Assembly (NCBI GenBank): GCA_016712475.1
Contig: JADJRA010000001.1
Span: forward strand, 1,413,414-1,477,413
DNA from: Deltaproteobacteria bacterium
Lineage (GTDB): Bacteria; Myxococcota_A; Polyangia; Nannocystales; Nannocystaceae
Direction of reading: 5' to 3'
DNA length: 64,000 bases
Translations under genes and position numbers: made by a program
The notes under the pieces: model-generated
Told to the model about the DNA's origin: nothing
Database searches by the model: none
The model's input: the letters and a program-made list of their open reading frames with translations, nothing else
Shown: piece after piece, positions 27,250-64,000 of the stretch
Layout: each line of letters begins with the position of its first letter
How positions within the stretch are numbered: position 1 is the stretch's first letter

Positions 27250-27337
27250 GCCGACGTCGACACCATAGCGGCGTCCGGCGCCGCGGCAACCGAAAATCAT
27301 CGCACGCCCGCGTGTGGTTGCGCGCGGTCGCCCGGCA

Positions 27338-27706: not shown

Positions 27707-28053
27707 GTCTTCGGCCTCAAGGTGATCATCTCCGAGACGAGTTGAGCGAGCCACTGTGCCGACACACGATCGGCGCGCACCTCGATCTCGACCTCGCCGA
27801 CGTGCACCACGACCTCGGCCACCACCGCCGGCTCGGACGCCAGCATCGGGACGAACTTGACCGCGCCGCGCGTGCCCTCCGTCGCGACGCGCCGCTTCCA
27901 CCACCGCAGCCTCCCGCTGCCGAGCTCATGCCGCCGCTCGAACTCCGCGAGCGTCAAACCACTGCGCTTCCACGCGCGAACTGCTGCGCGGCCATCGGCC
28001 GTCGTCCATCGCACCCCGCTCGCCGGCGCCGTCCACTCGCTCCCGCGTGACAT
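27703..28053 (-). CDS. tnpA: IS66 Orf1 (TnpA, HTH protein)
   Basis: 116 aa; ...AWKRSGLTLAEFERRHELGSGRLRWWKRRV... is typical of IS66 orf1; first gene inside the IR-bounded element. Confidence 0.7.
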   Translation of the reverse strand: MSRGSEWTAPASGVRWTTADGRAAVRAWKRSGLTLAEFERRHELGSGRLRWWKRRVATEGTRGAVKFVPMLASEPAVVAEVVVHVGEVEIEVRADRVSAQWLAQLVSEMITLRPKT

Positions 28054-28182
28054 GCCCGCGAGCGTGCACGATCACTGGGCGGCCACGCGGGTGCGCTCGG
28101 GCGGACGGACACCTCCCGCGTGACATGCCCGCGAGCGTGCACGATCACTGGCGGCCACGCGGGTGCGCTCGGGCGGACGGAC
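28037..28182. repeat. About 73-bp tandem duplication (2 copies) near the tnpA-proximal end of the IS66 element
   Basis: ctcccgcgtgacatgcccgcgagcgtgcacgatcactgg(g)cggccacgcgggtgcgctcgggcggacggacac occurs twice in a row (read directly; coordinates approximate). Confidence 0.6.
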
Positions 28183-28400
28183 ACGCGCGTGGCTGAACCG
28201 GGAAGCCCCGCGGCTGCGTCAACCACGCACGCGGTCCGGCGGACGGACACCCACGGTCGTCGAGCACGAGCGCGGTCGGTCGAGATGGTCGCGCTTCAGG
28301 GTTGTCGGTGGGCGGCCCAAAGCGGCGCGCGCCCAACGCGGCCGGCGTGCTATGAGCATGCTGGCTCGCGTGGGCGCGTCTCCGGGGTCAAGCGGCAGCG

Positions 28401-28811
28401 TCAGATTTGCTCGAGGCAGGAGGCCGGCGGAGAGAGTCTCTCGAACCCGAGCTCGCCACGTGCAGAGGTCAGCTCAGCCACGATGGTTGAGTGTGGGACT
28501 TGCGCCATGCGCCCTACCATAAAGCCACGGTAGTTACGCACAGCTTCACGTGGGGTCAGTTGGCCGAGAGTGCCGGACGAGACCCACTCCGCCGTGAGGA
28601 CGTCGATCGCGAGCGCGGTGGCCTCCGACTTCGGCGGCGCAGGCACGTACTGCGATCGGATCTCAGCCACGCGTCGGGCGTCGAGAGTGTAGGTGCCGAC
28701 TCGAGCGACTGAGCAGTCCTCGCCCTCAGACGGACCGGGCGCCGGACCAGGAACCGGGCCTTTGCACGCCGGGCAGATCACGATCAGCAAGGTGAGGAAG
28801 TAGCGTTGCAT
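28401..28811 (-). CDS. Small hypothetical lipoprotein (136 aa), co-transcribed downstream of the island subtilisin
   Basis: ATG at 28811 with a strong AGGAGG RBS (revcomp of 28812-28830); MQRYFLTLLIVICPAC lipobox; lower-GC codon usage. Confidence 0.55.
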   Translation of the reverse strand: MQRYFLTLLIVICPACKGPVPGPAPGPSEGEDCSVARVGTYTLDARRVAEIRSQYVPAPPKSEATALAIDVLTAEWVSSGTLGQLTPREAVRNYRGFMVGRMAQVPHSTIVAELTSARGELGFERLSPPASCLEQI

Positions 28812-28820
28812 GACATCCTC

Positions 28821-31307
28821 CTAATCACCGCCGCCATCAGGCTCATTGTCCACTTCAGACGTGGCCATGCAGAAGACATGAACAACCGCAGACCCCGAAC
28901 TACTCACCCATTCTTTGTCGACGGTCACCTCGACGCACGTGTCCTCCACGTTGACCAGCGAGTCCTCGAACGCTACCATTTTCTTGTGATCGTGATCAGC
29001 GTTGATGCGCGTGTAGCTAGGAGTACCGTAGCCGACCGCGCAGGTGCCATTCCCCTGCTTCGGGCGCAGGCGCAGCTCGAGATCGATGCGACTGATGTTG
29101 TCCTTTCCGGACATGTCCTCGATCGCCATCATGACGCACTTGACCTCTTCGGTGCCCGTTGCAACAGGGCCACCAAAGGCGATGTATTGCTGGTCTGCGG
29201 TACCACTGGTGAATGTGTAGGTGTTGTACGAGAGCGCACCTCCCGCAAAGCTCGGCGAGCCGTTCGAAAGCAAGCGGAGCTTCGCTCGTCCGAGACCAAA
29301 GAGGTTGTCCGCACCCACGACGTTCTTCGTTCCCGAGCTGTTGCCCCGGTCACCCATGCCGAGCATCACCGTGTGCAAGCGTCCCACGTTCGAGATCCAC
29401 GTTTGGCCATCGTTCAGACCCCAGTCCTTGACGAGAGCCGCCATCCCGGCAACAGCCGGCGCGGCAAAACTCGTACCGACCCACTGCCCGGTGCTCACGC
29501 AGCCGTTGGTGCCGGAGCCCGAGGTTACGTAGTTCACGTAGGCAGATGGCGCCGCGAGGTCTGCCATGGACAACGCCCCGCCCACCGTCGTTCCGTCCGG
29601 CGACTGGATAGACCCACCGCCGCGACTCGCGTAGGTGTCGTCGATATCCATGACCGAGTACAACGTGTCGTCCGTGCTGAGCCCGTTGACCGAGAAGGTC
29701 TTGGGAATGTCCGCAGGGCTGGACATGTTGCACGACGATCCCGTCGTGCCGTTGTTCCCCGCCGATACCGCGATGAAGATGCCGTCGTCGAACGCGCCCT
29801 CGTAGGCGTCCTCGAGATCATAGCTCGAAGTCGCGTCACAGGTGGCGTTCGGATACGAATCACCATCATTCCAGCCGTTGCTACTGCTGATGATGCTCGT
29901 GAGATAGCAACTACCCGGACCGGATGGCGTGAGCTCAATGTCGATGCCCTGAAGGCAACTCGTTGACATCACGTGACGGCTCATCAGGGTGCTACCCTGG
30001 TGATCGAAGAACTGAACGACCGCCTCCTTTCCGTAGCCGCTCGCCGAGTTCTCCCACGAGGCACTGTGGTTCGTGGTGCTGTCGCAAACCGTCAAGCCTT
30101 GAGCCTGATCCTGGGTGTAGTCGCCGACAGCGATGGAGGACACGACGGTGCCGTGGTTGACGTTCGAGGCCTCCGAGTAGTTGGCTTGTGAGTAGCTCTC
30201 ACAGTACTCAACCCAACACTTCCACCGGCCAAGGAGCCGTTCAGTCTCGCATCCACTGTCGTCGTCAAAGAAGCACGCTTCGTCATTGAAGTGCCACTGC
30301 TCTTGGATGCCGATCGTGATTTGTCCCGCACCGTTTTCAGCGTTGAATCCGGCGTCGATGTACGTCTGAGCGTCAGTGTAGGAGCGCGAATCTCGATGGA
30401 TTCCGATCGCGCGGCTGCCGTGCGACTGAAGACCAACGTCGTCGAGATCGATCTTCGTGATGTCTTCGCGCGCCTGCAGCTCCTCCAACAGGCCCTTCGA
30501 GACAGAAGCGCCTAGCCACCCCGTGGTCCAGTGATAGACGCGGATCGTTCCGCCGCTTTCCACGATCTGTGCTGCCAATGACGACGACCGCTCCAAAAAT
30601 GCTTCCTCTCGCTCGGCCAGCGCGACTTCGCGCTGTTCGACCGCGGCAGCATACGTCTCTGCGCTCCACATCCCCACCTCAGGAAGTAGCGGAACATCCC
30701 AATCGGGGGCACCCCGCAACTTGATCAGCACGTCGAGGGAGTCATCCGGTCCAGCTTCCTCGGCCGCAGCGAGGAGGGTAGGACGCACCACGAGAGGCGC
30801 ATCGTCGGATGGTTCCGCAGGCGGGTCGACGTTTGGAACTCGAGTCACCCGATAGGTGTCGGTGCGCGTGCCTTCCGCGTCCACGACCGACGTTACCGTC
30901 TCTTCGTACAGGTACTCGTCCTGTAGGTGCGTATAGGGACGCGAGACCTTCCGCCAGGTCTCAAGGTCCAGCTCACCGACCTCCGTTGACGAGACCATCT
31001 CGCCACTTTCGTTCTCTACGAGAACCTTCTCGTACACCAACTCGCGTCCAGCATTAGCTGCGTCCGGATCTCGTACTTCGGTCTCGACATCGCCAGCACC
31101 GCCCGAGCTCCCTTCCTCAATCTCATCCGCGGGGAGGACTTCCGAGCGTGGGCTATGCAGCCCTCCCTCGGCACTGTCGACGGGCGCTCGGTCATCGCAG
31201 GCGGGCGCGAGAGCCAATGTGGATAGAGCCCACATGCGACGCAGGCACGTCCAGCGGTTCGCACGGGAATTGCCAATCGCAACAAGCTTCTTCGCCGAGG
31301 TTGACAT
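28821..31307 (-). CDS. Subtilisin-like serine protease (peptidase S8) with a long N-terminal pro-region and a C-terminal extension
   Basis: Catalytic motifs NHGTVVSSIAVGD (His), GTSFAAPAVAGMAALV (Ser) and a DAG Asp region; start taken at the ATG at 31307 (MSTSAKKLVAIGNSRANRWTCLRRMWALSTLALAPAC, a long K/R-rich n-region plus LAPAC lipobox-like end). The ORF opens at a TTG at 31445; an ATG near 31235 is an alternative. Confidence 0.7.
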   Translation of the reverse strand: MSTSAKKLVAIGNSRANRWTCLRRMWALSTLALAPACDDRAPVDSAEGGLHSPRSEVLPADEIEEGSSGGAGDVETEVRDPDAANAGRELVYEKVLVENESGEMVSSTEVGELDLETWRKVSRPYTHLQDEYLYEETVTSVVDAEGTRTDTYRVTRVPNVDPPAEPSDDAPLVVRPTLLAAAEEAGPDDSLDVLIKLRGAPDWDVPLLPEVGMWSAETYAAAVEQREVALAEREEAFLERSSSLAAQIVESGGTIRVYHWTTGWLGASVSKGLLEELQAREDITKIDLDDVGLQSHGSRAIGIHRDSRSYTDAQTYIDAGFNAENGAGQITIGIQEQWHFNDEACFFDDDSGCETERLLGRWKCWVEYCESYSQANYSEASNVNHGTVVSSIAVGDYTQDQAQGLTVCDSTTNHSASWENSASGYGKEAVVQFFDHQGSTLMSRHVMSTSCLQGIDIELTPSGPGSCYLTSIISSSNGWNDGDSYPNATCDATSSYDLEDAYEGAFDDGIFIAVSAGNNGTTGSSCNMSSPADIPKTFSVNGLSTDDTLYSVMDIDDTYASRGGGSIQSPDGTTVGGALSMADLAAPSAYVNYVTSGSGTNGCVSTGQWVGTSFAAPAVAGMAALVKDWGLNDGQTWISNVGRLHTVMLGMGDRGNSSGTKNVVGADNLFGLGRAKLRLLSNGSPSFAGGALSYNTYTFTSGTADQQYIAFGGPVATGTEEVKCVMMAIEDMSGKDNISRIDLELRLRPKQGNGTCAVGYGTPSYTRINADHDHKKMVAFEDSLVNVEDTCVEVTVDKEWVSSSGSAVVHVFCMATSEVDNEPDGGGD

Positions 31308-32147
31308 GCACAATTCTCCAGACCGGTGTTTCGGTCGGTTCGTCGGTACAGATCGTTGCCACGCCGCGCACATGTCCGCGCGCGGTGGCCCAGATTGGCC
31401 AAAACTCTGCGGCCGAGCATACGGCCGATTGGGCAGATGTGTCAACCGATGATTTTGCGTCAGAAGTATGAGTTCTTTACTCGGCGTCTAGCCGGGTCTA
31501 GCCGGACAATTTGCGGCGTCGGCAATGCAACACGGTTGGCATCGTTGGGTGTCAAAGTGACGCTCTCCGGGAGAATAGTCGCGCGGTTTCCGTACGCTGC
31601 GCACCTTCGCCAGCGCTGAACCAAGGCGAGGTAAGGAAGAGACCAGCGTGATGCTTCAATAATTCGCCGGCGGCCGGGGAGCGAGCGCCACCGACCTTTC
31701 AGCTCCTGTGGCACGCTACGTCCGAAGTGGGATGGCAACGTCGCAGACGTCGTGGACGACACCAGGCGGCTCACCGCGATCGCGATTGCCCCCCTCGTCT
31801 CTCGGCCGGTGCGCATTCACTGGTTGTGCAGCTCGGCAGGAAGTCAGTCAGAAGGAAGACAGCGAGCGCTCCGTGTAGAAGCTCACAAGTGGCCATTGGA
31901 TCACTCGGCTTGGACCTCAACACCGGTTACCGGGGGCCTTGAGCTACTGCTCGTCTTGCCGTGGAGGCCGTTCCCCTGGGAGAGAGTTCGTGGGCGGTCG
32001 GGTAGATCGTCGAGTAGCGACATGAGGACCGAGGGCGCGCAGCCACCCGTGTCGATGTCGCGAATCTGTGACAGGCGCACCAAGCGCAGCGCTTCGCTGC
32101 GCTTGGCATACCTGGACATGACGTGGCGGTGGTGGCATGCTCAGCGC

Positions 32148-32663
32148 ATGGCAAGATTGTGGTCGCATCCAGCGACTTCGTTTGTTTGTCTCCTATCACT
32201 GAGCTGTTCGGACCGGAAAGGCGGCGATGAGGGCGTGGCGTCTAACACCGCCTCAAGCTCGGACGGGGATGGCGAGAACGGGAACTCCGAGGGTTCTTCC
32301 ACGACGAGCGAAGCACTCGGGGTCGAGGATTGCGAAGGTCTCCTTGTCGAGGCCGACTGCAACAACGCCATGCTCGCCGATGTTGGCCAATGCATGTGGG
32401 TCCCGAGATACGCACCGGCGCCCGGCGTGACAAGCTGCGGAGCACAAGACGCAACGGAGGCGTGCGTTGGAATCATCGGTAGTCAGCAGGGATGCGGGCT
32501 GTATTCTTGTCCTGGCGATGAAGGCGTCAATATCTACTATCGACAAGCAGATGGCGGAATTGAACTGTTCGTCAGCCCTCTGTGCGGCCCGGAACCTGTC
32601 GGGGGGTGGATGGCGTGCCAGGCAAACATCCCCGAGTGTTCTTGTCCCTGCTCTGCTAATTAG
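32148..32663 (+). CDS. Secreted Cys-rich lipoprotein, family B paralog 1
   Basis: ATG at 32148 gives MARLWSHPATSFVCLLSLSCSDRKGG (lipobox); mature domain with about 14 Cys (EDCEGLLVEADC...CVGIIGSQQGCGLYSCPGDEG...LCGPEPVGGWMACQ...ECSCPCS) collinear with the next ORF. Confidence 0.6.
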   Translation: MARLWSHPATSFVCLLSLSCSDRKGGDEGVASNTASSSDGDGENGNSEGSSTTSEALGVEDCEGLLVEADCNNAMLADVGQCMWVPRYAPAPGVTSCGAQDATEACVGIIGSQQGCGLYSCPGDEGVNIYYRQADGGIELFVSPLCGPEPVGGWMACQANIPECSCPCSAN

Positions 32664-32670
32664 GAGGCAT

Positions 32671-33105
32671 ATGAAGCGCGCATGCCTGATCCTGCATGTT
32701 ACCTTGCTGGGAGTGACAGCCTGCACCCAGACTGAGCTTGAAGACTGCGAGAAGATTCAGCACGAGTCAAAATGTGAAGATGCCGATGTTGATGGCGCGG
32801 GTGCCTGTCATTGGGTCGAGGCCTATCGGCCGTCTGTGTCGGAAACCGCATGCGAAGTGGGCGAGCCGACCGGCTTGTGCGTCGGCATCGGAGGCACCCA
32901 ACAGGGCTGCGGTCTCTTTGGGTGCGAGCCAGGGTCCGAAGATGAATCGGCGAACCTCTACTTCCGCCATGATGGCCCGCAGGTCGAAGTGTTCGGCAGC
33001 CCAGAGTGCGGCCCCGAGCCAGTCGGCGATTGGACCGCTTGCTCGAGCGCCGACGCGCCGGCCGAGTGTAGTTGTCTGTGCGGCGTCGCAGAGCCGCCCT
33101 CGTAG
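32671..33105 (+). CDS. Secreted Cys-rich lipoprotein, family B paralog 2
   Basis: ATG at 32671 preceded by taggaggcat (AGGAGG RBS); MKRACLILHVTLLGVTAC lipobox; EDCEKIQHESKC...CVGIGGTQQGCGLFGCEPGSED...ECGPEPVGDWTACS...ECSCLCG matches paralog 1 motif for motif. Confidence 0.65.
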   Translation: MKRACLILHVTLLGVTACTQTELEDCEKIQHESKCEDADVDGAGACHWVEAYRPSVSETACEVGEPTGLCVGIGGTQQGCGLFGCEPGSEDESANLYFRHDGPQVEVFGSPECGPEPVGDWTACSSADAPAECSCLCGVAEPPS

Positions 33106-33169
33106 GGCCGGCGCCGCTAACTTACGATGCGGCATGTGTCAACGAGAATGAGATTTTTGGGTTGAGAGT

Positions 33170-34183
33170 TTAGTGAAGTCCGAGCTCGCTCTCCGAGCGA
33201 TTCTCGGGTGGGTTGATCCAGACTGCCTTGGGGAGCGTGGGCACCTGCGGTGGGCCTGCGACGAAGCGCTCTGGGTTCTTCGCGAAGGCTTCGTTCATCA
33301 CGAGCTGGCGCTGCGCGAGGACCTCGGTGGCGCGCCCGAAGAAGACGTCGGCGGGAGTGAGGCGAGCGATGCCGGAGTGCCGGTGCTCGTCGTTGTACCA
33401 GGCGAAGAAGCGCCGGCAGAAGTCGCGCGCGTGGTCGAAGCTCTCGAAGCGCTCCGGGAAATCTGGGTGCGACTTGAGGGTGTGGAACTCGGACTCGGAG
33501 TGCGGGTTGTCGTTGCTGACGCGCGGTCGGCTGAACGACGCCGTGATCTCGAGGTCGCGCAGCAGCTGCTTCACAGTCTTGCCCCTGGGCACGGGCCCGC
33601 GGTCGGCGTGCAGCTTGAGCGTGCCCGGTTCGATCCCGTGGCGGTTGCACGCCTCGCGGATCAGCTTCGCCGCGAGCTCGCCGCTCTCCTCGTGGGCGAG
33701 CATCCAGCCCGGGTTGTAGCGGCTGAAGAGATCGATGATCACGTACAGCGGGTAGTAGGTGTACTTCACCGGACCGCGCAGCCACGTCACGTCCCACGTC
33801 CAGACCTGGTTGGGTGCCGTGGCGATCAGTTCGGGTCGCGCGTACTTTGGGTGCCGGGCTTGATCGCGGCGCTCGCGGATCTCGTCCTGCAGCGCCAGAA
33901 TCCGATACATCGTGCGGGGATGGCAGAGGTAGTGCTGCTCGTCGAGCAACGTGGCGTGCACGGTCGCCGGCGCCTTGTCGACGAAGCGCTCGGAGTGGAG
34001 CACCTCAAGCACGTTGGTCCGCTCGGCTTCGGAGAGCGCGCGTGAAGGTCGTCGACGTGGTCGGCGGGGGCCATGCAGGGCCGGCTGCCGCCAGCGGTAC
34101 GCAGTGCTCCGCGGCACGCCGAGCGCCTCGCAGGCGACCGCCACGCCGAGCTGGTCCGCGAGTTCGTCGACCGCTGCCTTCAC
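33170..34183 (-). CDS. IS3-family transposase OrfB (DDE integrase core; expressed as an OrfAB fusion by -1 frameshift)
   Basis: ...WTWDVTWLRG...YPLYVIIDLFSRYNPGWML...HADRGP...YNDEHRHSGI... is the rve/DDE core; the frame is open upstream of the first Met into the orfA 3' end. Confidence 0.75.
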   Translation of the reverse strand: MKAAVDELADQLGVAVACEALGVPRSTAYRWRQPALHGPRRPRRRPSRALSEAERTNVLEVLHSERFVDKAPATVHATLLDEQHYLCHPRTMYRILALQDEIRERRDQARHPKYARPELIATAPNQVWTWDVTWLRGPVKYTYYPLYVIIDLFSRYNPGWMLAHEESGELAAKLIREACNRHGIEPGTLKLHADRGPVPRGKTVKQLLRDLEITASFSRPRVSNDNPHSESEFHTLKSHPDFPERFESFDHARDFCRRFFAWYNDEHRHSGIARLTPADVFFGRATEVLAQRQLVMNEAFAKNPERFVAGPPQVPTLPKAVWINPPENRSESELGLH

Positions 34184-46393: not shown

Positions 46394-46467
46394 GCGCTCG
46401 TAGCTCAGCTGGATAGAGCATCAGGCTTCGAACCTGAGGGCCGGGAGTTCGAATCTCTCCGGGCGCA
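46394..46467 (+). tRNA. tRNA-Arg (anticodon UCG)
   Basis: Cloverleaf read directly: acceptor gcgctcg/cgggcgc (one G-U), D-arm gctc-agctggata-gagc, anticodon stem tcagg/cctga with loop cTTCGAa (U33, anticodon TCG, A37), T-arm gggag-ttcgaat-ctctc, discriminator A; no encoded CCA; coordinates within 1-2 nt. Confidence 0.8.
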
Positions 46468-46539
46468 CTGGGTGGGCGACGCAGCTTCGTAGCCCCGGTC
46501 GTGACGTCGTACGGGAGCGTCGAGCGGGACGCGGGGCGG

Positions 46540-48111: not shown

Positions 48112-48644
48112 GCGCGACGGGTCCGCCGCCTGAAGCACCCCCTCGAGCTCGGCGACCGCGAGCCGGCACGTGGCGCCCGAGGTCCGGCAAGGGCTCGCGG
48201 CGTTCACCGGGACGAGCCCGGCTCCGATGGTGAACGAACGCGGCGCGCCCGATCGCGCTCGCGCCCGTCGACGACCGCGAGCCCTGCGGACGCGTGATGC
48301 AGCGAGCATGCGGCGACGTGCAGCGCGGTCGCGGCCGATGCCACGCGATCGCACGAGCTCGCCAGGGCCTCGCTCGCGAGGCGCAGCCGCGGTGTCGCTC
48401 CGCTCCCTGCATCGCCGTCCTGCGATCCACCCACGCGCACGTGGGCCCGCTGGTCGGCCCGGGTGCGGGCCCACTTGCAGGCCGGCCCCGACGCGCAGCC
48501 ACGACGCGGACAGCCCCTCCCCGCGGGTGGAGGACGGGCGCCCACGCAGGCGCCCGAATTCGCCGGCCTCGCAGATTGCTCGATCCGATCGGCGCCGGCG
48601 CGACACAGGCAGCTCGAAGAGGCCGCGACGTCCGCGGGAGACCC

Positions 48645-51600
48645 ATGCCACGACTGCTCGAGCGCCTGCGATTGACGCCTGTCCGAAGCGACTCCTACCC
48701 TGGAAAGGTGGCGGGGTCGGTCGAGCAGGCGGACACGGTCGACGCCGCCGCGATCGAACGCGCACCCGCCCAGCCCGCAACGCCCGGCGACGATCTCGGG
48801 CTGGCCCCCGACACGATCTCGGTCGAGCGGGTGCGCGCCGCCGTTCACCGACGGGTGTTCGGCGAGGTGGTGGAGCCGGTGCGGATCGGTCGCTACACCG
48901 TGCTGAAGCGACTCGGCGCCGGTGGCATGGGCGTGGTCTATGCCGCCTACGACACCGCGCTCGACCGCAAGGTCGCGCTCAAGCTCCTGAACGCCGACAC
49001 GCTCGACCCCGCGCGCGAGGCCTCGCGCCGTGCACGGCTGGTCCGCGAGGCCAAGGCGCTCGCGCGCCTGTCCCATCCCAGCATCGTGCAGGTGTTCGAG
49101 GTCGGCACCCACGAGGAGCAGCTCTTCATCGCGATGGAGTTCGTCGACGGCGTCACGCTGGGCACGTGGGTGCGTGAACGCAGCCGTGGCTGGCGCGCGA
49201 TCACGGCGATGTACGTCGCGGCCGGCCGCGGCCTCGCAGCTGCCCACGCGGCGGGCCTCGTGCACCGCGACGTCAAGCCCGACAACATGCTGGTGGGACA
49301 CGACGGTCGCGTCCGCGTGCTCGACTTCGGCCTCGCGGGCGACATGGCATCGTCGTCGGATGGCGACGTCGAGGATGGGAGTGCCCCGCAGCCGGCGCTC
49401 GGCCCCGCAGCGCCGCTCACCAGGACCGGCATGGTGCTCGGCACGCCGGCGTACATGGCTCCGGAGCAGCACCTGGCGCGACGCGCCGACGCCCAGAGCG
49501 ATCAGTTCGGCTTCTGCGTCGCGCTGTGGGAGGGGCTGTTCGGCGAGCGGCCGTTCGTGGGCGAGAGCCTCGCGGAGCTCTCGGCCGCGGTGATCCAATC
49601 GCGACTGCACGAGCCCAGCCACGGCGCGCAGGTGCCCCGTGCACTGCGACGTTGTCTGCTGCGCGGGCTCGCGCGAGAGCCCGCACAGCGCCACGCGTCG
49701 ATGGACGCGCTGCTCGGGCAGCTCGAGAGCATCCTGCGCTCGAACGCCCGTCGCGTCGCGGCCGCCGGCGCGGTCGTGAGCGGGCTGCTGCTGCTGGGCG
49801 GCGTGGGGATGTTCATGCAGCGCGAGCAGACCCACGACGCCCGCGCGGAGGCGTTGAGCAGCGAGGTCGTGGATCAGCGCTCCCGCGCCGACGAGGCCGA
49901 GCTGGCGCTGCGCGCCCGCGAAGAAGCGGTCATCGTCGCCGAGTCGCGGCTGTTGTTGCCCACCGATCCGACACGTGCGTTGGCCTCGCTGCGCCGACTG
50001 CCCGAGGCCGCGGCCGCGTGGTCGGCCCCCAGCGCTCGCATGCTCGCCGCAGAGGCGATCGAGGCCGGTGTCGCCGTGCGGATCGCCGAGCTGCCCCCGA
50101 CCACGAGCGCGCGCGTGCTGTCACCCGGCGGCCGCTGGGCCTGGCACACGCAGGACGAAGGCGGCGCGTACGTGCTCATCGAGCTCGCGAGCGGCCGCCG
50201 CGTCGTGCTCGACGCGGGACCTCCCGACGTGTTCCCCGAGCTGACCTTCTCGCGTGACGAGACCCAAGTCGTGACCGCGCAGGCGGGCGCAATCCGGCTG
50301 TGGGACCTCGCGCGCGGCGACGCCCGCGAGCTCGGCAAGCTGGCGGGATTCGCGGGCGCGCGCCGCTTCGCCGACGATGGCTCGCGCGTGACGGTCATCG
50401 AACACGGTGATACGACCGTCGCGATCGTGACGCCGCTGGCGGATGACGTCGCGCCGCTTCGTCGCACGCTATCCGAGGTCGAGTGGGCACCGGTGATCAA
50501 CCGCGACGGCACCAAGGTGGTCGGGGGCAACGGCATCGATCGACTGTGGGTGCACGATCTCGTTGGCGATCGCCGACGAACCCTCGCAGGTGCGGTGCGC
50601 TCGGGGCCGCAGCTGTCGCCGGACGGCCGCTGGACCGCAGCGCTCGCGGCGGACGGTCTGGCCGTGTGGCACGACGGCGCCACGACGCCGACGCTGCTCC
50701 CGATTCCCGCGGGACTGCGGGGCGACACAATCGCGTTCGATCCCGCTGGCACCACCGTCGCGCTCGCGAGCGCTGCGGGTCCGATCGTCGCGTGGGATCT
50801 CGCGAGCCGACGCTCGCGGACCATGAACACCGGCGCACGCGCGCAGCGACTGTGGGTCATGGTTGACGGCCGCGTGGTTGGCCTGCGCGAAGACGGCAGC
50901 AGCACGCTGTTCGATCGCACCGGCCACGATCAGCGAACGCTTCGCAGTGAGCCCGGCATCACCGACCTCGCGATCGTCCCCGATCTCGACGGCGCCCCGG
51001 CGATCGTGACGGTCGGTGAGGGCACCGAGGCGCGCTGGTGGCGATGGCCCGACGGCGCCGTGCTCGAGCGCGGCGCCGGCCCTGCCGGTGACGTGGCAAT
51101 CGACGCGGACACGACGACACTGCTGTCGAGCGGTGACGACGGTGCGGTGCGTCGCACCGACACCCATGGCAGCGTCGTGATCGTGCAGGGGAGCGCCGGC
51201 GTCGCGCCTTCGCTGGCACTGTCGCGCGACGCAGCGCGGCTGGCCGTCGGCAGCGGTGACGCAATCACCATCCGCGGCCCCGACGGTGTCGAGATCGCAC
51301 GGCTGGGCGACCTGCACGGTACCGACGAGCTCCGCTTCCTCGCCGACGACCAGACCGTGGCATGGCGCGGCGTCGACGGTGTGCAGCGGTGGCGGCCGGG
51401 TGGCGACGCGGTGATGTTGCGCGCGGGCTCGTGGCATGCGAGTGCGGTCAGCCCCGACGGGCGCAGCGTGGTCACACTCGGGAGCGAGCTGGCGCGCTTC
51501 GACGAGGGCGCCCAGGCACCGAGTTGGCGCGTCGACGTCGAGCCTGCCTGGCGCCACGTCATCGTCGACCGCAGCGGCGAGCGCGTGCTGGCAGCCGGGG

Positions 51601-51965
51601 TCTCACCGACGATGACGATCTTCGACGCCGTCACCGGCGAGTCGCGGACCATCACCACCGCAGTCGTGGGCCTCGAGGACGTCGCGTTCGGTGCCGACAC
51701 CGACACGTTGTTCGCGGTCGGCCAGCAGGCCTATGTCATCGACGCCCGCGATGGCACCACGCTCGCGTACGCGATTCCCACCGGCACGACCACGCTGGGC
51801 GATCGGAGCGTGGCCGTCGGCGCCGATGGTCGTCACTTCGCCTACGCCGGCGCCGACGGGCTGCTGTGGCGGCGCCACTTCGACGCACCGGTGCCGGCCG
51901 CGGCGTTACAGGCGTGGGTCGCCGGCGCCGTCGCGCGCACCGATGCCCCCGAGGGCGCGCGATGA
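48645..51965 (+). CDS. Ser/Thr protein kinase with a single TM segment and a large beta-propeller/WD40-like C-terminal sensor region
   Basis: ATG at 48645; Hanks motifs LGAGGMGVVYAAYD, ALKLL, HRDVKPDNML, DFGLA, GTPAYMAPEQ; hydrophobic segment VAAAGAVVSGLLLLGGVGMF; about 650 aa of repetitive beta-strand-like sequence; the stop overlaps the ECF sigma start. Confidence 0.75.
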   Translation: MPRLLERLRLTPVRSDSYPGKVAGSVEQADTVDAAAIERAPAQPATPGDDLGLAPDTISVERVRAAVHRRVFGEVVEPVRIGRYTVLKRLGAGGMGVVYAAYDTALDRKVALKLLNADTLDPAREASRRARLVREAKALARLSHPSIVQVFEVGTHEEQLFIAMEFVDGVTLGTWVRERSRGWRAITAMYVAAGRGLAAAHAAGLVHRDVKPDNMLVGHDGRVRVLDFGLAGDMASSSDGDVEDGSAPQPALGPAAPLTRTGMVLGTPAYMAPEQHLARRADAQSDQFGFCVALWEGLFGERPFVGESLAELSAAVIQSRLHEPSHGAQVPRALRRCLLRGLAREPAQRHASMDALLGQLESILRSNARRVAAAGAVVSGLLLLGGVGMFMQREQTHDARAEALSSEVVDQRSRADEAELALRAREEAVIVAESRLLLPTDPTRALASLRRLPEAAAAWSAPSARMLAAEAIEAGVAVRIAELPPTTSARVLSPGGRWAWHTQDEGGAYVLIELASGRRVVLDAGPPDVFPELTFSRDETQVVTAQAGAIRLWDLARGDARELGKLAGFAGARRFADDGSRVTVIEHGDTTVAIVTPLADDVAPLRRTLSEVEWAPVINRDGTKVVGGNGIDRLWVHDLVGDRRRTLAGAVRSGPQLSPDGRWTAALAADGLAVWHDGATTPTLLPIPAGLRGDTIAFDPAGTTVALASAAGPIVAWDLASRRSRTMNTGARAQRLWVMVDGRVVGLREDGSSTLFDRTGHDQRTLRSEPGITDLAIVPDLDGAPAIVTVGEGTEARWWRWPDGAVLERGAGPAGDVAIDADTTTLLSSGDDGAVRRTDTHGSVVIVQGSAGVAPSLALSRDAARLAVGSGDAITIRGPDGVEIARLGDLHGTDELRFLADDQTVAWRGVDGVQRWRPGGDAVMLRAGSWHASAVSPDGRSVVTLGSELARFDEGAQAPSWRVDVEPAWRHVIVDRSGERVLAAGVSPTMTIFDAVTGESRTITTAVVGLEDVAFGADTDTLFAVGQQAYVIDARDGTTLAYAIPTGTTTLGDRSVAVGADGRHFAYAGADGLLWRRHFDAPVPAAALQAWVAGAVARTDAPEGAR

Positions 51966-57419: not shown

Positions 57420-60400
57420 CTAGCGGCGACGAGTCGCGCGCCGCTCGATCTCCGCCACGACGTCGGCACGGCGGCGCGACCAGGTCGCCGCATCGACGTG
57501 CATCACATCCCATCCCCGCAGCCGCAGCACCGCAGGTCGGTGGAGATGGCGTTCGAAGGCGTCGGCTGCATCGGCGCCCTCGTCGGTGAGCACCGCGAGT
57601 ACGAAGTCCGGCGTGTCGGCGGCGCCGATCGCCAGCGGTATGCGGAACTCCGACGCGCCCAGGCCCAGCTCGCAGCGCAGGCCGGTGCGCTCGAGCGCCA
57701 GCGCGATCTGGACCGCGAGCGGCACGTGCCCCTCGAACGAGGCACGCTCGCGCTCGCCCGCGGCGTTGCGTCGGCGCCCGCGCACGTCGTCGAGCACCTG
57801 CTGCGCCTGCAGACGCTGCCCCTTGCCGAGCAGGAATGCGAACTCGAGGTAGGCCTTGAACAGTCGCGGGCCATCGTGGGTGGCGTCACCGACGTGCAGC
57901 AACTCGGGGTCGAACGAGGCGACCACGTAGCACTCGGCCTTGGCGCGGGAGATCGCGACGTTGAGGCGCCGCTCGCCGCCACGTTGCCCGAGCGGACCGA
58001 AGCGCGCCGGCACGTAGCGCTCGCTCGCGCCGCCCTTGCGGGTGCGCTCGACCGGCGCGTGGCCGAGCGAGAACACGATGACGTCGCGCTCGTCGCCCTG
58101 CACCGACTCGAGGTTCTTCACGAACGGTCGTCGATCGATGGCATCGACGGTGGTGGCAGCCCGCCACGCCGCGGCGAATCCGTCGTCGGCGGCGACGCGG
58201 GCCTCGACCGCGTCGAGCACGGTCTGACGCTGGCGGAGGTTGAACGTCACGACGCCGATGGTCGGCGGCTCGCTGCGCGACAGCAGCTCGGCGATGAGCG
58301 CCACGACGCGCTCGGCCTCGGGGCGATTGAGCCCGGCGTCGTACTGCCCGCCCTCCACCGCGATCCACCGCAGGGCCGGCGGCGCGGTGGGCCCCTGCGT
58401 CGAGGGGATGGTGAGCAGCTCGCCGTCGTACATCGCGTGGTTGGAGAACGCGATCAACGACTCGTCGCGGCAGCGGTAGTGCCACTGCAGGCCCGCGTGG
58501 GGACAGCGCGCGCGCGCCAGCGCCAGCAACGACTCGGCCGCGAACACGTCGCGCACCGCGAGTTCCTCGGCCGAGCGATCTTCGTCGTCGGTGCTGCTGG
58601 TGCCGAGTTCGAAGTACGACGACGGCGGCATCTGCTTCTCGTCGCCAGCGATGACCACCCGCTGCGCCCGCAGCATCACCGGCAGACCCGACTCGACGGT
58701 GCACTGCGAGGCCTCGTCGAAGATCACGAGGTCGAACAGCGGCTCGCGCGGGAACAGCACCGTCATGGTCTCGGGCGACAGCAACCAGCACGGCATCACA
58801 TCGAGCAGGCCGACGTCGGCGAACTCGCGGACGAAGCGGCGCAGTGGCATCAAGCGGCTCTTCTTGCCGACCTCCTTGAGCAGCGACTCCTTGGCGCGCT
58901 GCGGGTCGCTCCGGCGCGCGCGATAGCCCGCGTTCGGCGTCTGCAGCAGCTCGGCCTGGTCGGCCCGGGCGACGATGGCGGCAACCTCGAGCGCTGCGAT
59001 CTCCGGCTCGAGCCGCGTCATCGTCTCGATCGCACGGTCCGCGCGCTGGGCGGTCGCGATCGTGCCGAGATCGTCGATGCGTGGCTGCAGGTTGCGGGCG
59101 CGCTCCAGCTGCGCCGCCGCCCATGCCCGCGCGATCGACTCGCGCCAGTCGGTGAAGGGGCGACCCGCGAGCGCCGCGGCCACGCGATCGAGCAACGCCG
59201 GCGCGGCCGTCATCGTCTCGCACGCCAGCGCGGTCCAGCCGTCGAGCTCGCGCAGCCGCGTCGCGTCGCGGGCGAGCCGGTCCGCGAGCTCGCGTAGTGC
59301 GGTGGCGTCGTCGCGCAGGACCCACGGGAACACCCCTGCGATGGCCGCCAGCGCCTGCAGCAGCCGCTGTTGCGCCTCGGACTGCGCGAGACGGTGCGCC
59401 GCCCACTCGTCGGTGGCGGCGCGCTCGAGCGAGATGCCGATCGCCGCCAGCGTCGTGGCCGCGGCACGCACCGGGGCCGCGAGTCCGGCCAGCAGCTGCA
59501 AGCGCTCGATCGCCGCGCCCGCGCTGGCGGCATCACCTTGCGCCCGCGCCGACAGTCCGAGCCGCTCGAACAGCGCCCGCGCTTGCGCCCACGCGCGCGC
59601 GGCGTGCAGCCGCGATTGCAGCCGCGCGAGAAACTCGGCATCGAAGCCGGCCGCCGCCTGCTCGGGCCACAGTCGCACCAGCGACGCGCGCACCTCGGCC
59701 CGCGTGCGCCACCACAGCGGCGAGACGATCCGCGCCCAGCGACCGGCGAACGACTGCAGCACCGTCACCGCGCGCTCGGCGGGATCGTCGACCACGAGCC
59801 CGCCGGGGCTCCACTGCGCCAGCGCCTGCGACTCGCCACGCCAGCGCTCCACGAGCGACGCGACACCGTCGTCGCCGTGCAGGCACAGCGCGGTCAGCAA
59901 CGCGATGTCGTCGGGGCCCTGGCAGGCCGCACGCGCGGCGTGCAGCGCGAGCAGACCCTCGCGTGCGCGCGCCAACGCGTCGCGATCGACCGGCGCCGGC
60001 GCCAGCGCAGCGTCGAAGGCGTCCGCGTGGGCGATGGCGTCGCGCAGCTGCACGCGCATCGCCGTGAGCGCCGCGTCGTCGTACCCGCGCAGCGAGCCGC
60101 GCGCGAGCCCCCGCTGGCGCCACCACGCGCTCGGAGCCCACAGGTCCTGGTGCGGATGCAGCCGCTCGACCAGCTCGAGCAGTCGCAGCAAGCGTTCGCG
60201 ATCGATACCCGCGAGCGCGGGATCGACGACGTGGGGCTCGCCGCTGGCGACCATCGTGATGAGCTGGCCGACGCACAGGCCGGCGTCGTCGATCCGCTGC
60301 GCGAGCAGGCTGCGATCGGCCTCGAGCGCGGCCTTGGCCTGCTCGTACTCCATGCGCAGCAGCTCGAGGCGGCCCGGCGGCGAGGCCGAAGGTCGCTTGG

Positions 60401-63152
60401 CCTCGAGGCGCACCCGCACCCGCTCGAACAACGGCTTGCGGTCCTCGTGCACGTCGTGCACCACCGCGAGGTACTGTCCGAGGCCCCGAACCTCGAGTCG
60501 CTGCCCGACCACGTCGAGCGCCGCACGCTTCTCGGCGACCACCGCCACCCGCTCGCCGCGACGCAGCGCGTCGGCCACCAGATTGACGATGAGCTGGCTC
60601 TTGCCGGTCCCCGGCGGGCCATCGACGACCGTCACGCGGTGGCTGCGACACTGCGCCAGCACGGCGCGCTGGCTGGGATCGGCCGCGACCACCGGCCAGC
60701 CCGGCGCACCCGCGTCGGTCACCGCGGGCTCACCGACCACGCCGGTCGTGGCGGGCAGCAACGCGGCCGCCGAGGCCAGCACGGTGGCGGGCTCCTTCGC
60801 GAGGTCGGCGAGCTCGCGCAGCAGCGCGTCGTAGTCTTGCAGGAGATCGGAGCTCGACTGGGGGAACAACCCCAACAGCGCGCACTCCTCGATCGACAGC
60901 CGCGGCGGGGCCTGATCGAGGTCGCGGTCGCGATCGCCAAACGGCACCAATGCGGTCGACTCCACCGCCACCGGCACGCCGATCTCGCGCAGCTTCGCGA
61001 GCATGGCTTCGACCCCGCGCGCGGGGTCGGCCACAATGTCGTCGAGCTCGCGTCCGAGTTCGTCGGGGAAGGCGAGCGCGGCCTTGTTGAAGAGCAGGCG
61101 CAACAGCGACTGGTTTGCGATCGGCTCCTCGTCGCTGCGCCGGCGCAGCGAGAAGCCCCGCGCACCGCGACCGTCACGCTCGAGCTCGACCGGGAACAGC
61201 ACCAGCGGTGCTCGCACGCCGTAGCCGACCTCGGTCACGCCGCGCGGCGCGATGTTGCCGACCAACACGGGATAGCCCACGTACAGCTCGTTGGCGCCGG
61301 TCTCCTCGATGCGATCACGGACCTCGCGGTGCAGCTCTCGCAGCTGCGCGGAGCAGGCCTCCGCGGCGTCGTGTCGGCCGGCGTCGTCGGCGGTCACCAA
61401 CACCGCCTCACGGCCGCCGCGCACCAAGGTCAGCGTGCGCTCGGCGGTGCCGGGGCGGATCGCATCGAGCGCGACGAGATCGAAGCAGCGCCCGCGCACG
61501 AGCCGACGCAGCCGCACCGAGGGACTGCGTCCGTCGCCGGAGATCAGCTCGTCGCGCAGCCGCGTGATGGCGTCCGTCAGCGCCCGCCTCGAGGCGTCGA
61601 TCGGCGCCGCCGCGGCCGATGGCGGCTGACGGGTCGCCACCAGCCGCACCGGCTGGTCGAGCGGCGCACCGTGCAGTGGCGGGCTGACCTCGATGCCGCG
61701 ATCACGGAACAGCTGCGCGAGGGGTGCGAGGGCCTCGGGCGTGGTCGCCTGCACGCCGGCGAGCCGCAGCAGACGACGCGGTGCGATCGACGACTCACCG
61801 CGACGCTCGACGCTGTCGCACAGCGCGGCGAGGGCGTCGGCAACCTCGTGCTTGCGCACCGGCAGCGGGATCGCGACCTGCTCGAGCAGCTCGAGCTCGA
61901 GCGGCGACTGCATCGCGGCGATCGCAGGGCGGATCCAGCGGCGGAACTCGCCGCCGTGCCCGAGCGCCTCACCGATCGCGAGGATCGTCTGCACCTCGCG
62001 CGCGTCGACCACGTCGTCGGCACCCATCACGTGGGTGAGCAGCAAGAACAGGCTGCGCACGAGATCCGGCCCGCCGGCACGGACCATGCCGCCGGTCTCG
62101 TAGAAGCGGGCGAGCGCGACCTCGGGATCGAGCAGCTCCGACCAGCCGGGGATGGTGCGACCGAAGGCGTCCTCGATCGCGTCGAGCTCCTCGGGCGAGA
62201 TCACGCCATCGGCGGCGGCGACCAACACCGCGCACGCGAGCGCGCACTCGCCCAGGAACGCCGGCGGCTCGTCGCGCGGGTCGAAGTCGACGTCGACGCG
62301 GCTCGAACCCAGCGCGCGCGCGATCACGGCATCGACCTCGGCGAGGCTGCGCGTGCTCGCGCCGCGCCCCGTGAGTCGCTGGTACACATCGCTCTCCGAG
62401 AACAGCCACAGCGCCCAGGCGCGCAGGCTGTGCTCGGGGTGCGTGGTCGCGAGCGCGGCTTCACCGGCCGCCAGCGTGCGATCCATGAGCTCTCGCGCCT
62501 GCTCGAGGTAGGCCGCGGTGTCCCACGTCAACGCGTCGCCGGGCAGGCCCGTGGTCGCGATCATCTCGAGCCGCAGCGCTGCGTCGAGATCCTGGCACGC
62601 GAGCAGGCCGAAGCGATCGGCCGTGATCTCGCGCGCGACCGCGAGTCGACGCGCGGCCTCGGCCTGGGCGCTCGGCAACACCCCCGCCTCGGCCAGCTGC
62701 AGCCCCGCCAGCGCGGTGGCCCCGAGCTCCGTCCAAGGCCCGTGCGCCAGCCAGTGACCCAGCTCGTGCCCGAACAACGCCACGGCGGCACCGTCGTCGA
62801 GCAGCGTCAGCATGCGCCCTTGGATCTCGAGCAGGATCGGCGACTGCACGAAGTGCAGCGCCGCGTTCTCGCGGCCGCTCGACTGGTAGAGCTCGAGCGC
62901 GCCATCGATCGCCAGGGCCGCTCGCGCCGCCTCGGCCTGGGCATGGGCGGCGGGTGCCATCGTCGGCGACAGCGCGAGCGCGTCGGCGTGCAGGCGGCGA
63001 CGAATCGCCTCGGCATCACGCGGCACCAGCGAGGCCCGCTGCACCGCGAAGCCGGGGAAGCCGTCGAGCGCGGCGGCCAGCTGCCGCTCCAGCGAGAACC
63101 GCACCGCCTCGACGTCGAGACCGACCAAGCTCGTGCGCGTCGTGGCCGTCAC
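57420..63152 (-). CDS. Giant multidomain protein (1910 aa): N-terminal M48-like Zn-metallopeptidase domain, TerB-like domain, DUF4011-like region, Upf1-like SF1 helicase (AAA_11/AAA_12), C-terminal restriction-endonuclease-like (DUF3320/DUF559-type) domain
   Basis: LLDDGAAVALFGHELGHWLAHG (HExxH, M48-type); AAADGVISPEELDAIEDAFG (TerB-like); LYVGYPVLVG...RAPLVLFPVELER (DUF4011 signature); VDGPPGTGKSQLIVNL (Walker A), VIFDEASQ (motif II), VIAGDEKQMPP, WHYRCRDESLIAFSN, QGDERDVIVFSL, RRLNVAISRAKAE (SF1/Upf1-like motifs); C-terminal ...RLRGWDVMHVDAATW... REase-like; GTG start overlaps the upstream gene stop (GTGA). Confidence 0.75.
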   Translation of the reverse strand: MTATTRTSLVGLDVEAVRFSLERQLAAALDGFPGFAVQRASLVPRDAEAIRRRLHADALALSPTMAPAAHAQAEAARAALAIDGALELYQSSGRENAALHFVQSPILLEIQGRMLTLLDDGAAVALFGHELGHWLAHGPWTELGATALAGLQLAEAGVLPSAQAEAARRLAVAREITADRFGLLACQDLDAALRLEMIATTGLPGDALTWDTAAYLEQARELMDRTLAAGEAALATTHPEHSLRAWALWLFSESDVYQRLTGRGASTRSLAEVDAVIARALGSSRVDVDFDPRDEPPAFLGECALACAVLVAAADGVISPEELDAIEDAFGRTIPGWSELLDPEVALARFYETGGMVRAGGPDLVRSLFLLLTHVMGADDVVDAREVQTILAIGEALGHGGEFRRWIRPAIAAMQSPLELELLEQVAIPLPVRKHEVADALAALCDSVERRGESSIAPRRLLRLAGVQATTPEALAPLAQLFRDRGIEVSPPLHGAPLDQPVRLVATRQPPSAAAAPIDASRRALTDAITRLRDELISGDGRSPSVRLRRLVRGRCFDLVALDAIRPGTAERTLTLVRGGREAVLVTADDAGRHDAAEACSAQLRELHREVRDRIEETGANELYVGYPVLVGNIAPRGVTEVGYGVRAPLVLFPVELERDGRGARGFSLRRRSDEEPIANQSLLRLLFNKAALAFPDELGRELDDIVADPARGVEAMLAKLREIGVPVAVESTALVPFGDRDRDLDQAPPRLSIEECALLGLFPQSSSDLLQDYDALLRELADLAKEPATVLASAAALLPATTGVVGEPAVTDAGAPGWPVVAADPSQRAVLAQCRSHRVTVVDGPPGTGKSQLIVNLVADALRRGERVAVVAEKRAALDVVGQRLEVRGLGQYLAVVHDVHEDRKPLFERVRVRLEAKRPSASPPGRLELLRMEYEQAKAALEADRSLLAQRIDDAGLCVGQLITMVASGEPHVVDPALAGIDRERLLRLLELVERLHPHQDLWAPSAWWRQRGLARGSLRGYDDAALTAMRVQLRDAIAHADAFDAALAPAPVDRDALARAREGLLALHAARAACQGPDDIALLTALCLHGDDGVASLVERWRGESQALAQWSPGGLVVDDPAERAVTVLQSFAGRWARIVSPLWWRTRAEVRASLVRLWPEQAAAGFDAEFLARLQSRLHAARAWAQARALFERLGLSARAQGDAASAGAAIERLQLLAGLAAPVRAAATTLAAIGISLERAATDEWAAHRLAQSEAQQRLLQALAAIAGVFPWVLRDDATALRELADRLARDATRLRELDGWTALACETMTAAPALLDRVAAALAGRPFTDWRESIARAWAAAQLERARNLQPRIDDLGTIATAQRADRAIETMTRLEPEIAALEVAAIVARADQAELLQTPNAGYRARRSDPQRAKESLLKEVGKKSRLMPLRRFVREFADVGLLDVMPCWLLSPETMTVLFPREPLFDLVIFDEASQCTVESGLPVMLRAQRVVIAGDEKQMPPSSYFELGTSSTDDEDRSAEELAVRDVFAAESLLALARARCPHAGLQWHYRCRDESLIAFSNHAMYDGELLTIPSTQGPTAPPALRWIAVEGGQYDAGLNRPEAERVVALIAELLSRSEPPTIGVVTFNLRQRQTVLDAVEARVAADDGFAAAWRAATTVDAIDRRPFVKNLESVQGDERDVIVFSLGHAPVERTRKGGASERYVPARFGPLGQRGGERRLNVAISRAKAECYVVASFDPELLHVGDATHDGPRLFKAYLEFAFLLGKGQRLQAQQVLDDVRGRRRNAAGERERASFEGHVPLAVQIALALERTGLRCELGLGASEFRIPLAIGAADTPDFVLAVLTDEGADAADAFERHLHRPAVLRLRGWDVMHVDAATWSRRRADVVAEIERRATRRR

Positions 63153-64000
63153 AGGATCACTCGTACGCCGCCGAGGGTCTCGATCTGATGCGGGAAGCGG
63201 TCGCCCGGCGTGCTGATGAACATGTAGTTCTTCGGCACCGACAAGGTCTGCGACAGCACCTCGATCATCTCGGGCGTGAAGGTGCCCTCCACCGCCACGA
63301 AGTCGATGCGGATCTGCGGATACAGGTGATCGATGCGCGCGAGGTCCTCGCCGAGGTTGGGCGGTGGCTCACCGCCGGGCGCGAAGACGTGCACCACGAT
63401 CATGCGCGTGGTCTGCTCGTTCTCCAGCACGTACTGCACCGCACGGTTGAGCTGCGCGGGGCTGTCGCCCTTGGTGAAGTAGATGATCGATCGACTGTTG
63501 ATGTGATCGATCGCGCCACGCACGCTGGTGCCGACCCACTCGTTCAGCCGCCGTAGGCCGTCGATCAACGAGCGCGTGGCCGACAGCGCCGCACGCATCA
63601 GCACGACCCGCAGGAACATCACGGCCACGATGCCCGCGGCCGAGAAGAAGTAGATCGCGAACACTCGGATGTTCTCGGGCGACAGCAACAGGTTGCCGAG
63701 CAAGCCCACCAGCACGGCGATGAGCGCGACGCTCACCGCCAGCCAACTCGCCCGGATGTCGCGCGGCAGGCGTGCGCGCTTGCTCTTGAGCAACATGTTG
63801 CCGATGGCGAACAGCGCCATCACGCACAGGAACGAGATCGTGTAGACACCGGCCAGCACCTCCACGTCGCCCGCAGTTGCCGCGAGGATCGAGCAACACA
63901 CCGCGCAGAAGCCGATGATGATCCAGTGGTTGGTCTTGCGCAGCTCGTTCTCCCGCAGCAACACCTGCGGTAGGCAGCGATCGAGGCTCATCCGCCGCAC
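63149..64000 (-). CDS. Polytopic membrane protein with a C-terminal cytoplasmic domain; N-terminus beyond the window; translationally coupled to the giant helicase gene
   Basis: Open to the window edge; about 4 TM helices (WIIIGFCAVCCSILAATAG..., LAVSVALIAVLVGLLGNLLL...) then a soluble domain ...IIYFTKGDSPAQLNRAVQYVLENEQTTRMIVVHVF...; stop TGA at 63149-63151 overlaps the GTG of 57420..63152. Confidence 0.5.
   Translation of the reverse strand: MRRMSLDRCLPQVLLRENELRKTNHWIIIGFCAVCCSILAATAGDVEVLAGVYTISFLCVMALFAIGNMLLKSKRARLPRDIRASWLAVSVALIAVLVGLLGNLLLSPENIRVFAIYFFSAAGIVAVMFLRVVLMRAALSATRSLIDGLRRLNEWVGTSVRGAIDHINSRSIIYFTKGDSPAQLNRAVQYVLENEQTTRMIVVHVFAPGGEPPPNLGEDLARIDHLYPQIRIDFVAVEGTFTPEMIEVLSQTLSVPKNYMFISTPGDRFPHQIETLGGVRVIL

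Follow-up and report, generated by a model that had tools for sequence, protein, structure and literature searches.

The stretch of DNA analysed here, 64,000 nucleotides of contig JADJRA010000001.1 from a member of the Nannocystaceae (Deltaproteobacteria bacterium, assembly GCA_016712475.1) and referred to below as the window, carries near its end a giant gene whose predicted product joins a zinc peptidase, a TerB domain and a helicase. The gene lies at 57420..63152 on the minus strand, the stop codon included; according to the list of open reading frames (ORFs) and the translation, it is a single ORF of 1910 amino acids with a GTG start. All motif strings quoted in a sequence-only reading of this locus are found in the translation, namely LLDDGAAVALFGHELGHWLAHG, YVGYPVLVG...RAPLVLFPVELER, GPPGTGKSQ, DEASQ, GDEKQMPP, QGDERDV, ISRAK and RLRGWDVMHVD. 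The GC content of the window is 61-74%, and long spurious ORFs are common there, such as a 1272-residue ORF opposite the giant gene. Judged by its relatives, the 1910-residue minus-strand frame is a real gene and not a chance high-GC frame, because it has full-length homologues at 40-99% identity. At least 120 homologues are among the matches listed, most with 97-100% query coverage and 40-99% identity, and a 99%-identical protein of 1910 residues has been deposited from long contigs of metagenome-assembled genomes (MAGs) as a "DUF4011 domain-containing protein" of a "Deltaproteobacteria bacterium". The GTG start given in the sequence-only reading is sound as well, since in the family alignment the homologues share this starting point and conserve the residues at the N-terminus.

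Five domains had been called from the letters alone (M48 peptidase, TerB, DUF4011, Upf1-like superfamily 1 (SF1) helicase and a C-terminal endonuclease fold), and all five are upheld by sequence profiles and fold comparison. The M48-type zinc peptidase domain comes first (residues ~10-285; 62298..63125, this and all following domain coordinates being on the minus strand) and contains the active-site motifs HExxH (H129, E130 and H133; nucleotides 62754-62768), E175-x-x-A-D179-R and T-H238-P-E-H-x-x-R244. Its similarity to the Pfam model is marginal (Peptidase_M48 at residues 114-247, 21.5 bits vs a cut-off of 20.3). An AlphaFold2 model of residues 1-600 was built on a 42-sequence alignment (mean pLDDT 86); fold comparison of this predicted N-terminal structure placed M48 peptidases and minigluzincins on top, with values of 8.8 for 3c37, 8.5 for BepA, 8.2 for Ste24, 8.0 for ZMPSTE24 and 7.8 for HtpX. 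The TerB domain follows (residues ~297-415; 61908..62264) with two "ADG..x..E" acidic motifs, which are the ligand-binding motifs of TerB. The TerB model PF05099 missed it in the full-length scan and matched the segment 290-425 alone at E 1.7e-5 (25.5 bits vs a cut-off of 24.4). Among 20 diverse family members, Pfam detected M48 in 16 (best E 5.6e-8) and TerB in 11 (best E 2.3e-6). A small alpha/beta linker domain, seen in the secondary structure of the AlphaFold2 model, occupies residues 416-520 (61593..61907); it gave no Pfam match and, at a mean identity of 35%, is among the least conserved segments.

The DUF4011 region is assigned to residues ~521-700 (61053..61592) from PF13195 and invariant alignment columns. 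PF13195 covers residues 597-687, which corresponds to the second half of the Pfam model only (48.2 bits vs a cut-off of 22.2), and an invariant SGDGRSPSVRLR motif at ~538-549 lies within the N-terminal part of the region. The first part of helicase RecA1, with the Walker A motif GPPGTGKSQ, spans residues ~821-905 (60438..60692) and is matched by AAA_30, AAA_19 and AAA_11; AAA_30 and AAA_19 hit the Walker A region at 825-888 with 31.2 and 26.6 bits, respectively. An all-helical insertion of about 500 residues (~906-1410; 58923..60437) separates helicase motifs I and II. The second part of RecA1 and RecA2 (~1411-1760; 57873..58922) contain DEASQ, GDEKQMPP, QGDERD and RRLNVAISRA and are matched by AAA_11 (59.8 bits, best stretch 1472-1510) and AAA_12 (55.4 bits, 1550-1746). 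The solved structures nearest to the helicase part by PDB sequence matches are all Upf1-like, namely IGHMBP2, Sen1, DNA2 and Upf1. The protein ends in a REase_MTES_1575 (Vsr/DUF559-like) fold at residues ~1811-1900 (57453..57722; PF18741), which scores 35.8 bits at 1815-1903, below the cut-off of 38.2; the same model matched 20 of the 20 diverse members at E<0.01 (best 1.1e-16).

Conservation across the family falls on the peptidase, the TerB domain and the motor. Motif counts were taken from 119-120 full-length members, with 76 other DUF4011 helicases as the comparison set. HExxH is present in 119 of 120 members, the M48 third-ligand motif ExxADR in all 120 and HPxxxxR in 117 of 120, and the TerB acidic residues D315, E322, E327, D379 and E386 are invariant in the family alignment. 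Alignments of 20 and 42 sequences show no variation in helicase motifs I, II, III, V and VI, and the Walker A columns G845-Q853 are likewise invariant. Mean identity to the window protein is 67-74% in the helicase cores (74% in the first part of RecA1), 57% in DUF4011, 55% in M48, 53% in TerB, 52% in the REase-like domain and 32% in the helical insertion. The motifs thus predict a complete M48 active site, in a protein that appears soluble and presumably cytoplasmic, and an SF1 motor with all ATPase motifs intact. Inspection of the giant protein's translation by eye reveals no transmembrane segment or signal peptide, no dedicated prediction having been made. One Nannocystales-like orthologue (P0031) has lost HExxH, with GRALGL in that stretch (residues ~128-140), together with the HP motif, and keeps the rest, which makes it a natural protease-dead variant.

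The C-terminal fold presents the opposite picture. In other DUF4011 helicases the site follows the pattern fRIDL...(I/V)ECDGxxYH...ARDRD...GW...R(I/V)WStDW, whereas the window family has fRIPL...(L/M)xDEG...(gap)...AFERHxH...GW...V.a..W; the window protein itself reads RIPL for RIDL, LTDEG for ECDG with Leu replacing the Glu, lacks YH by deletion, and has AFERH for ARDRD. Pro replaces the Asp of RIDL in 110 of the 119 members (Asp in 75 of the 76 other DUF4011 helicases). The Glu of ECDG is L, M, F, V or I in 118 of 119 and Thr in one, never Glu (Glu in 59 of 76 others), and the His of YH is deleted in 110 of 119 (His in 40 of 76 others). On these alignments the REase fold is present and its catalytic Asp, Glu and His are lost across the family, so that the working endonuclease expected in the sequence-only reading is not borne out. 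In Hhe, another giant helicase of this superfamily, the substitution E1731A in the Vsr-like domain abolishes defence (preprint, bioRxiv 10.1101/2022.06.16.496414). We infer that E1731 is the ECDG Glu; in a Klebsiella plasmid Hhe (L088) the Glu of IECDG is E1719. Since Hhe needs the Vsr-like Glu and the window family is without it, the family should not be able to work in the Hhe way.

A search with residues 1-520 against 1.84 billion cluster representatives returned 108 proteins at E<=1e-30, of which some 40 have a length of 1850-2350 residues. The same search returned many stand-alone proteins of 300-490 residues that match the peptidase module only, at 40-47% identity, and that are M48 by Pfam. 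The full-length family (~1900-2300 residues) occurs in many lineages of Myxococcota, in Proteobacteria and in Verrucomicrobia, with a patchy distribution across phyla. Myxococcota sources include Nannocystales, Sandaracinaceae, Kofleriaceae, Polyangium fumosum and Nannocystis sp. ILAH1; other named sources are Denitratisoma oestradiolicum, Endothiovibrio diazotrophicus, Cognaticolwellia, gammaproteobacterial MAGs and a Verrucomicrobiaceae MAG. Databases annotate the family only as "DUF4011/AAA domain-containing protein", and no paper on it was found in the literature. The architecture had been described as one not known before; this holds for the literature searched, but the databases hold a populous family and no one-off fusion. 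The member from Nannocystis sp. ILAH1 (P0061, 2239 residues) carries an extra N-terminal DEDDh/RNase_T exonuclease at residues 9-316, in front of the M48-TerB-helicase body, that matches the PADLOC candidate PDC-S48 (E 8.8e-91); the arrangement gives the impression of a nuclease regained. In a dnaX-ybaB-recR row, the gene of a free-standing M48-module paralogue (P0169, 380 residues, 44% identical to residues 1-290; L090, 8001-9143) begins 14 nt after recR, a single case of a possible link between the peptidase and DNA metabolism.

Immediately upstream of the giant gene lies an amino-acid permease gene that runs off the window, so that only its 3' part (63149..64000, minus strand) is included. 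Its polytopic product matches the C-terminal part of AA_permease_2 (E 4.6e-7) and is of the APC type; in a near-identical contig the permease has 624 residues. The C-terminal ~150 residues of the permease (63149-63600, minus strand) form a soluble domain without a Pfam match. The TGA stop of the permease overlaps the GTG start of the giant gene by 4 nt (GTGA), just as the sequence-only reading had described for a polytopic membrane protein upstream. Downstream of the giant gene are a 185-residue ORF without a Pfam match and a P-type ATPase gene. The permease and the same overlap recur in the near-identical contig, whose giant protein is 99% identical, and the permease is upstream at none of seven other orthologous loci (87% to 43-44% identity). 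At 87% identity the upstream gene is divergent, encodes 453 residues and lies ~620 nt away. At 69% it encodes a 209-residue protein without a Pfam match, at 60% a 42-residue ORF, at 53% an acetyltransferase and at 44% a 295-residue protein without a Pfam match. At 64% identity the orthologue and three other genes sit between rplO and secY (L093, 6001-16807, one MAG). These two genes are normally adjacent in the ribosomal-protein cluster, and the placing suggests an insertion of acquired DNA. At 43% identity, in Denitratisoma, an acyl-CoA synthetase gene is upstream and an AbiEii/DUF6088 pair downstream. Because no neighbour recurs across the orthologous loci examined, the position differing even at 87% identity, the giant gene is a stand-alone gene and the GTGA overlap is incidental.

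Two further observations concern these loci. In Denitratisoma oestradiolicum (L085, 14187-17494) the giant DUF4011 gene, the AbiEii/DUF6088 pair and a MiaB-like radical SAM gene stand in an order that recalls the right flank of P. aeruginosa cDHS1, described as a "large DUF4011 gene plus radical SAM gene" (PMC10250203). Kinase-TPR genes recur near the orthologues on four contigs, which probably reflects how common such kinases are in Myxococcota.

The profile scores place the protein relative to named systems. PF13195 above its gathering score followed by an Upf1-like SF1 core with motifs I-VI assigns it to the DUF4011 helicase superfamily. Against the NCBIfam model of ProA (NF058533, curated cut-off 1500 bits) it scores 552 bits (E 3e-165) over model positions 647-1703 only, while the true ProA proteins of two Pseudomonas loci reach 2316 bits (L064) and 2173 bits (L041); against that of Hhe (NF042953, cut-off 2000 bits) it scores 352.5 bits. 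Neither membership cut-off is reached. The PADLOC Hhe model (PDLC02194) gives 249.8 bits (E 1e-74), compared with 2444 bits for a Klebsiella Hhe. The best PADLOC match is the candidate PDC-S37, a generic DUF4011 helicase model (526 bits, E 6e-158, residues 821-1904), to which ProA and Hhe score ~1200-1290 bits. BLASTP aligns the protein with ProA and Hhe at 28-37% identity, and only over residues ~602-940 and 1423-1900. On these profiles the window protein is a separate branch of the DUF4011 helicase superfamily, neither Hhe nor ProA, and the branch is marked by the M48-TerB head, a dead REase and the lack of DUF3320, for which the Pfam scan found no match. The link to defence drawn in the sequence-only reading stands in part: the best profile matches are to defence or candidate-defence models (PDC-S37, Hhe and ProA), but the scores are far below the Hhe and ProA cut-offs.

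We tentatively propose, as a reading that is plausible though somewhat short of probable, that the giant protein is a single-protein defence against phages or other mobile DNA, with the protease as its output and with no partner gene. The helicase would load on and track along a nucleic acid, for which invading or abnormal DNA is the likeliest candidate, and its ATP-driven engagement would switch on or deliver the N-terminal protease, which would replace the nuclease as the effector domain. Substrates of the protease might then be proteins bound to DNA or derived from a phage, a host protein whose cleavage leads to abortive infection, or the giant protein itself. The TerB domain would act as a regulatory or ligand- or metal-sensing lid on the protease, and the dead nuclease fold would be kept as a DNA-binding or assembly domain. 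Defence is favoured because the nearest named relatives are anti-phage proteins, because members of the superfamily exchange their N-terminal modules, a habit typical of immune proteins, and because TerB domains are found alongside helicases in Shango and are also present in Bunzi. It is also favoured because the position of the gene is unstable, one copy lying between rplO and secY and one beside AbiEii, and because the ter operon has long been linked to phage inhibition.

Several points weigh against a defence role. Both the output role of the protease and the choice of its target are pure inference, and the defence role itself is transferred from distant paralogues only, since the protein falls well short of the cut-offs for Hhe and ProA. 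The N-terminal part of the protein was found in none of 72,556 plasmid records, in which all 513 matches, from DUF3320 or Hhe proteins, start near residue 556-608, and the 50,697 phage records lack the family, one partial match aside. The surroundings of the gene are mostly housekeeping-like, with no defence islands and with a defence-type neighbour (the AbiE pair) at one of nine loci. In P. aeruginosa, a related giant DUF4011 gene belongs to the core genes and flanks a defence hotspot (PMC10250203), and therefore proteins of this superfamily are not always accessory.

A related and more doubtful possibility is a "tracking protease", in which the ATP-driven SF1 helicase would carry the M48 protease along nucleic acid with proteolysis, not DNA cleavage, as the effector step. 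Its targets would be DNA-bound proteins of phage or host in the case of immunity, or trapped proteins in the case of repair. In its origin, an ancestor resembling Hhe and ProA would have had its nuclease inactivated and would have acquired the protease-TerB head.

Genome maintenance, in which a helicase-coupled protease would digest crosslinked or tightly bound proteins and stalled complexes on DNA as a non-immune functional analogue of SPRTN/Wss1, is the main rival but seems to us unlikely. An intact protease fused to an intact DNA or RNA motor beside a dead nuclease would suit this role, as would the mostly housekeeping-like neighbours, the absence from plasmids and phages, the presence of the gene in many Myxococcota lineages, the core status of the related P. 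aeruginosa gene and the stand-alone peptidase paralogue directly after dnaX-ybaB-recR in one genome. However, the placing next to recR was seen only once, two further free-standing paralogues having nothing similar around them, and the fold is M48 and not SprT or WLM. Moreover, the position of the gene is unstable even at 87% identity, its distribution is patchy across phyla, and the closest characterised relatives are defence proteins.

An Hhe-like nuclease, in which the REase fold would cut DNA through a rearranged site (for example the retained Asp/Glu of "TDEG" and the conserved His of "RHxHRP") and the peptidase would be only regulatory or self-processing, is improbable. In its favour, most full-length members retain the REase-like domain, which is moderately conserved at a mean identity of 52%, the acidic position of the ECDG Asp is D or E in 107 of 119, and H1871, R1879 and W1881 are newly conserved in the domain. 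Against this stand the family-wide replacement of the first metal-binding Asp by Pro, the hydrophobic residue in place of the Glu, the deleted His and the score of the window protein below the REase_MTES_1575 cut-off; the separate DEDDh exonuclease added in one lineage also looks as if nuclease activity were missing. The two-gene, membrane-linked surveillance module of the sequence-only reading, a permease translationally coupled to the giant protein, can hardly be right: the GTGA overlap in the window and the 99%-identical contig and the membrane links of TerB proteins in other systems speak for it, but the upstream gene is an ordinary APC-type permease, no membrane segment or signal peptide is evident by eye in the giant protein, and the pair is not conserved, the outcome that reading itself had named as counting against it, with other upstream genes in seven orthologues.

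Elsewhere in the window, positions 22000-34000 have a GC content of 0.61-0.64 compared with ~0.70 in the remainder and lie ~25 kb from the giant gene. This stretch holds an IS66-family transposase gene (25643-27289), an S8 subtilase gene (28821-31445) and an rve-type integrase gene with a helix-turn-helix (33170-34183), all on the minus strand, and looks like an insertion-sequence-rich or acquired segment. The sole tRNA gene in the window, tRNA-Arg (anticodon TCG), is at 46394-46468 on the plus strand, and a 1223-residue ORF at 48294-51965 (plus strand) encodes a Ser/Thr protein kinase domain with a weak beta-propeller match.

Among known systems, ProA resembles the window protein in being a giant single polypeptide (~1900-2200 residues) with DUF4011, an Upf1-like SF1 helicase with a long insertion and a REase_MTES_1575 fold, with 35-37% identity over the helicase parts. 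The two Pseudomonas ProA proteins contain, in order, a ~400-residue N-terminal domain without a Pfam match, a complete DUF4011, the helicase, an intact MTES_1575 domain and DUF3320. The C-terminal DUF3320 and the intact RIDL/ECDG/YH/ARDRD site set ProA apart, neither being present in the window family. By phmmer, the ProA N-terminal domain recurs in 43 generic DUF4011 helicases and in no window-family member, and hhalign found no relation between it and the M48-TerB module (probability 0.15%). The publication behind the name ProA was not found in the literature, nor was one on PDC-S37, whose model starts at DUF4011 and is without an N-terminal effector domain, whereas the window protein has the M48-TerB head.

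Hhe is said to have been described as a single-gene defence by Gao et al. in 2020. It shares with the window protein the combination of DUF4011, an SF1 helicase and a Vsr/REase-like C-terminal domain in one protein, with 28-32% identity in the helicase parts. It differs in being without M48 or TerB, in keeping the IECDG...YH...ARDRD site and in being plasmid-borne, unlike the window family, which was not found on plasmids. Shango and Bunzi offer a second parallel, a TerB-type domain together with a helicase or ATPase in an anti-phage setting. To our knowledge, TerB has no known biochemical role. Shango is a validated anti-phage system encoded by a three-gene operon of the TerB-like SngA, the ATPase SngB and the DEAD/DEAH-type helicase SngC. 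In contrast, the window protein carries its TerB domain within one SF1 helicase polypeptide, beside a protease and with no operon, and the PADLOC Sng and Bunzi models gave no match to the window protein at E<0.1. The peptidase shares HExxH, the downstream Glu in ExxAD and the (S/T)HP...R motif with HtpX, Ste24/ZMPSTE24, BepA and the Geobacter protein Q74D82 (3c37). Known M48 members are membrane-embedded or periplasmic and act in quality control or processing, whereas the M48 domain of the window protein appears soluble and is fused to a nucleic-acid motor. SprT and WLM gave no Pfam match in the window protein, which thus is not a SPRTN/Wss1-type zincin by membership; analogous function is a separate matter.

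The giant DUF4011 helicases (Hhe, ProA and PDC-S37) have been named as anti-phage, and no account of their mechanism was found in the literature. The branch found here amounts to a natural experiment, in which the motor is kept, the nuclease that Hhe requires is dead, and a conserved zinc protease and TerB are new additions. Should the protease prove to be the output, the helicase scaffold would be able to drive different effectors, and HExxH and Walker A mutants would offer a clean handle on what DUF4011 motors sense; a soluble M48 and a TerB domain would then be placed in a nucleic-acid context, which is unusual for both. Should its task rather be to remove proteins from DNA, the giant protein would join the candidates for the poorly known bacterial DNA-protein-crosslink proteases, and a "tracking protease", if true, would be a new mechanism among bacterial helicase-based defence or repair proteins. 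Compared with these systems, the window protein is best described as a variant of the Hhe/ProA-type giant helicases and not as a new kind of system, distinguished by an apparent switch of effector from nuclease to protease and by the addition of TerB.

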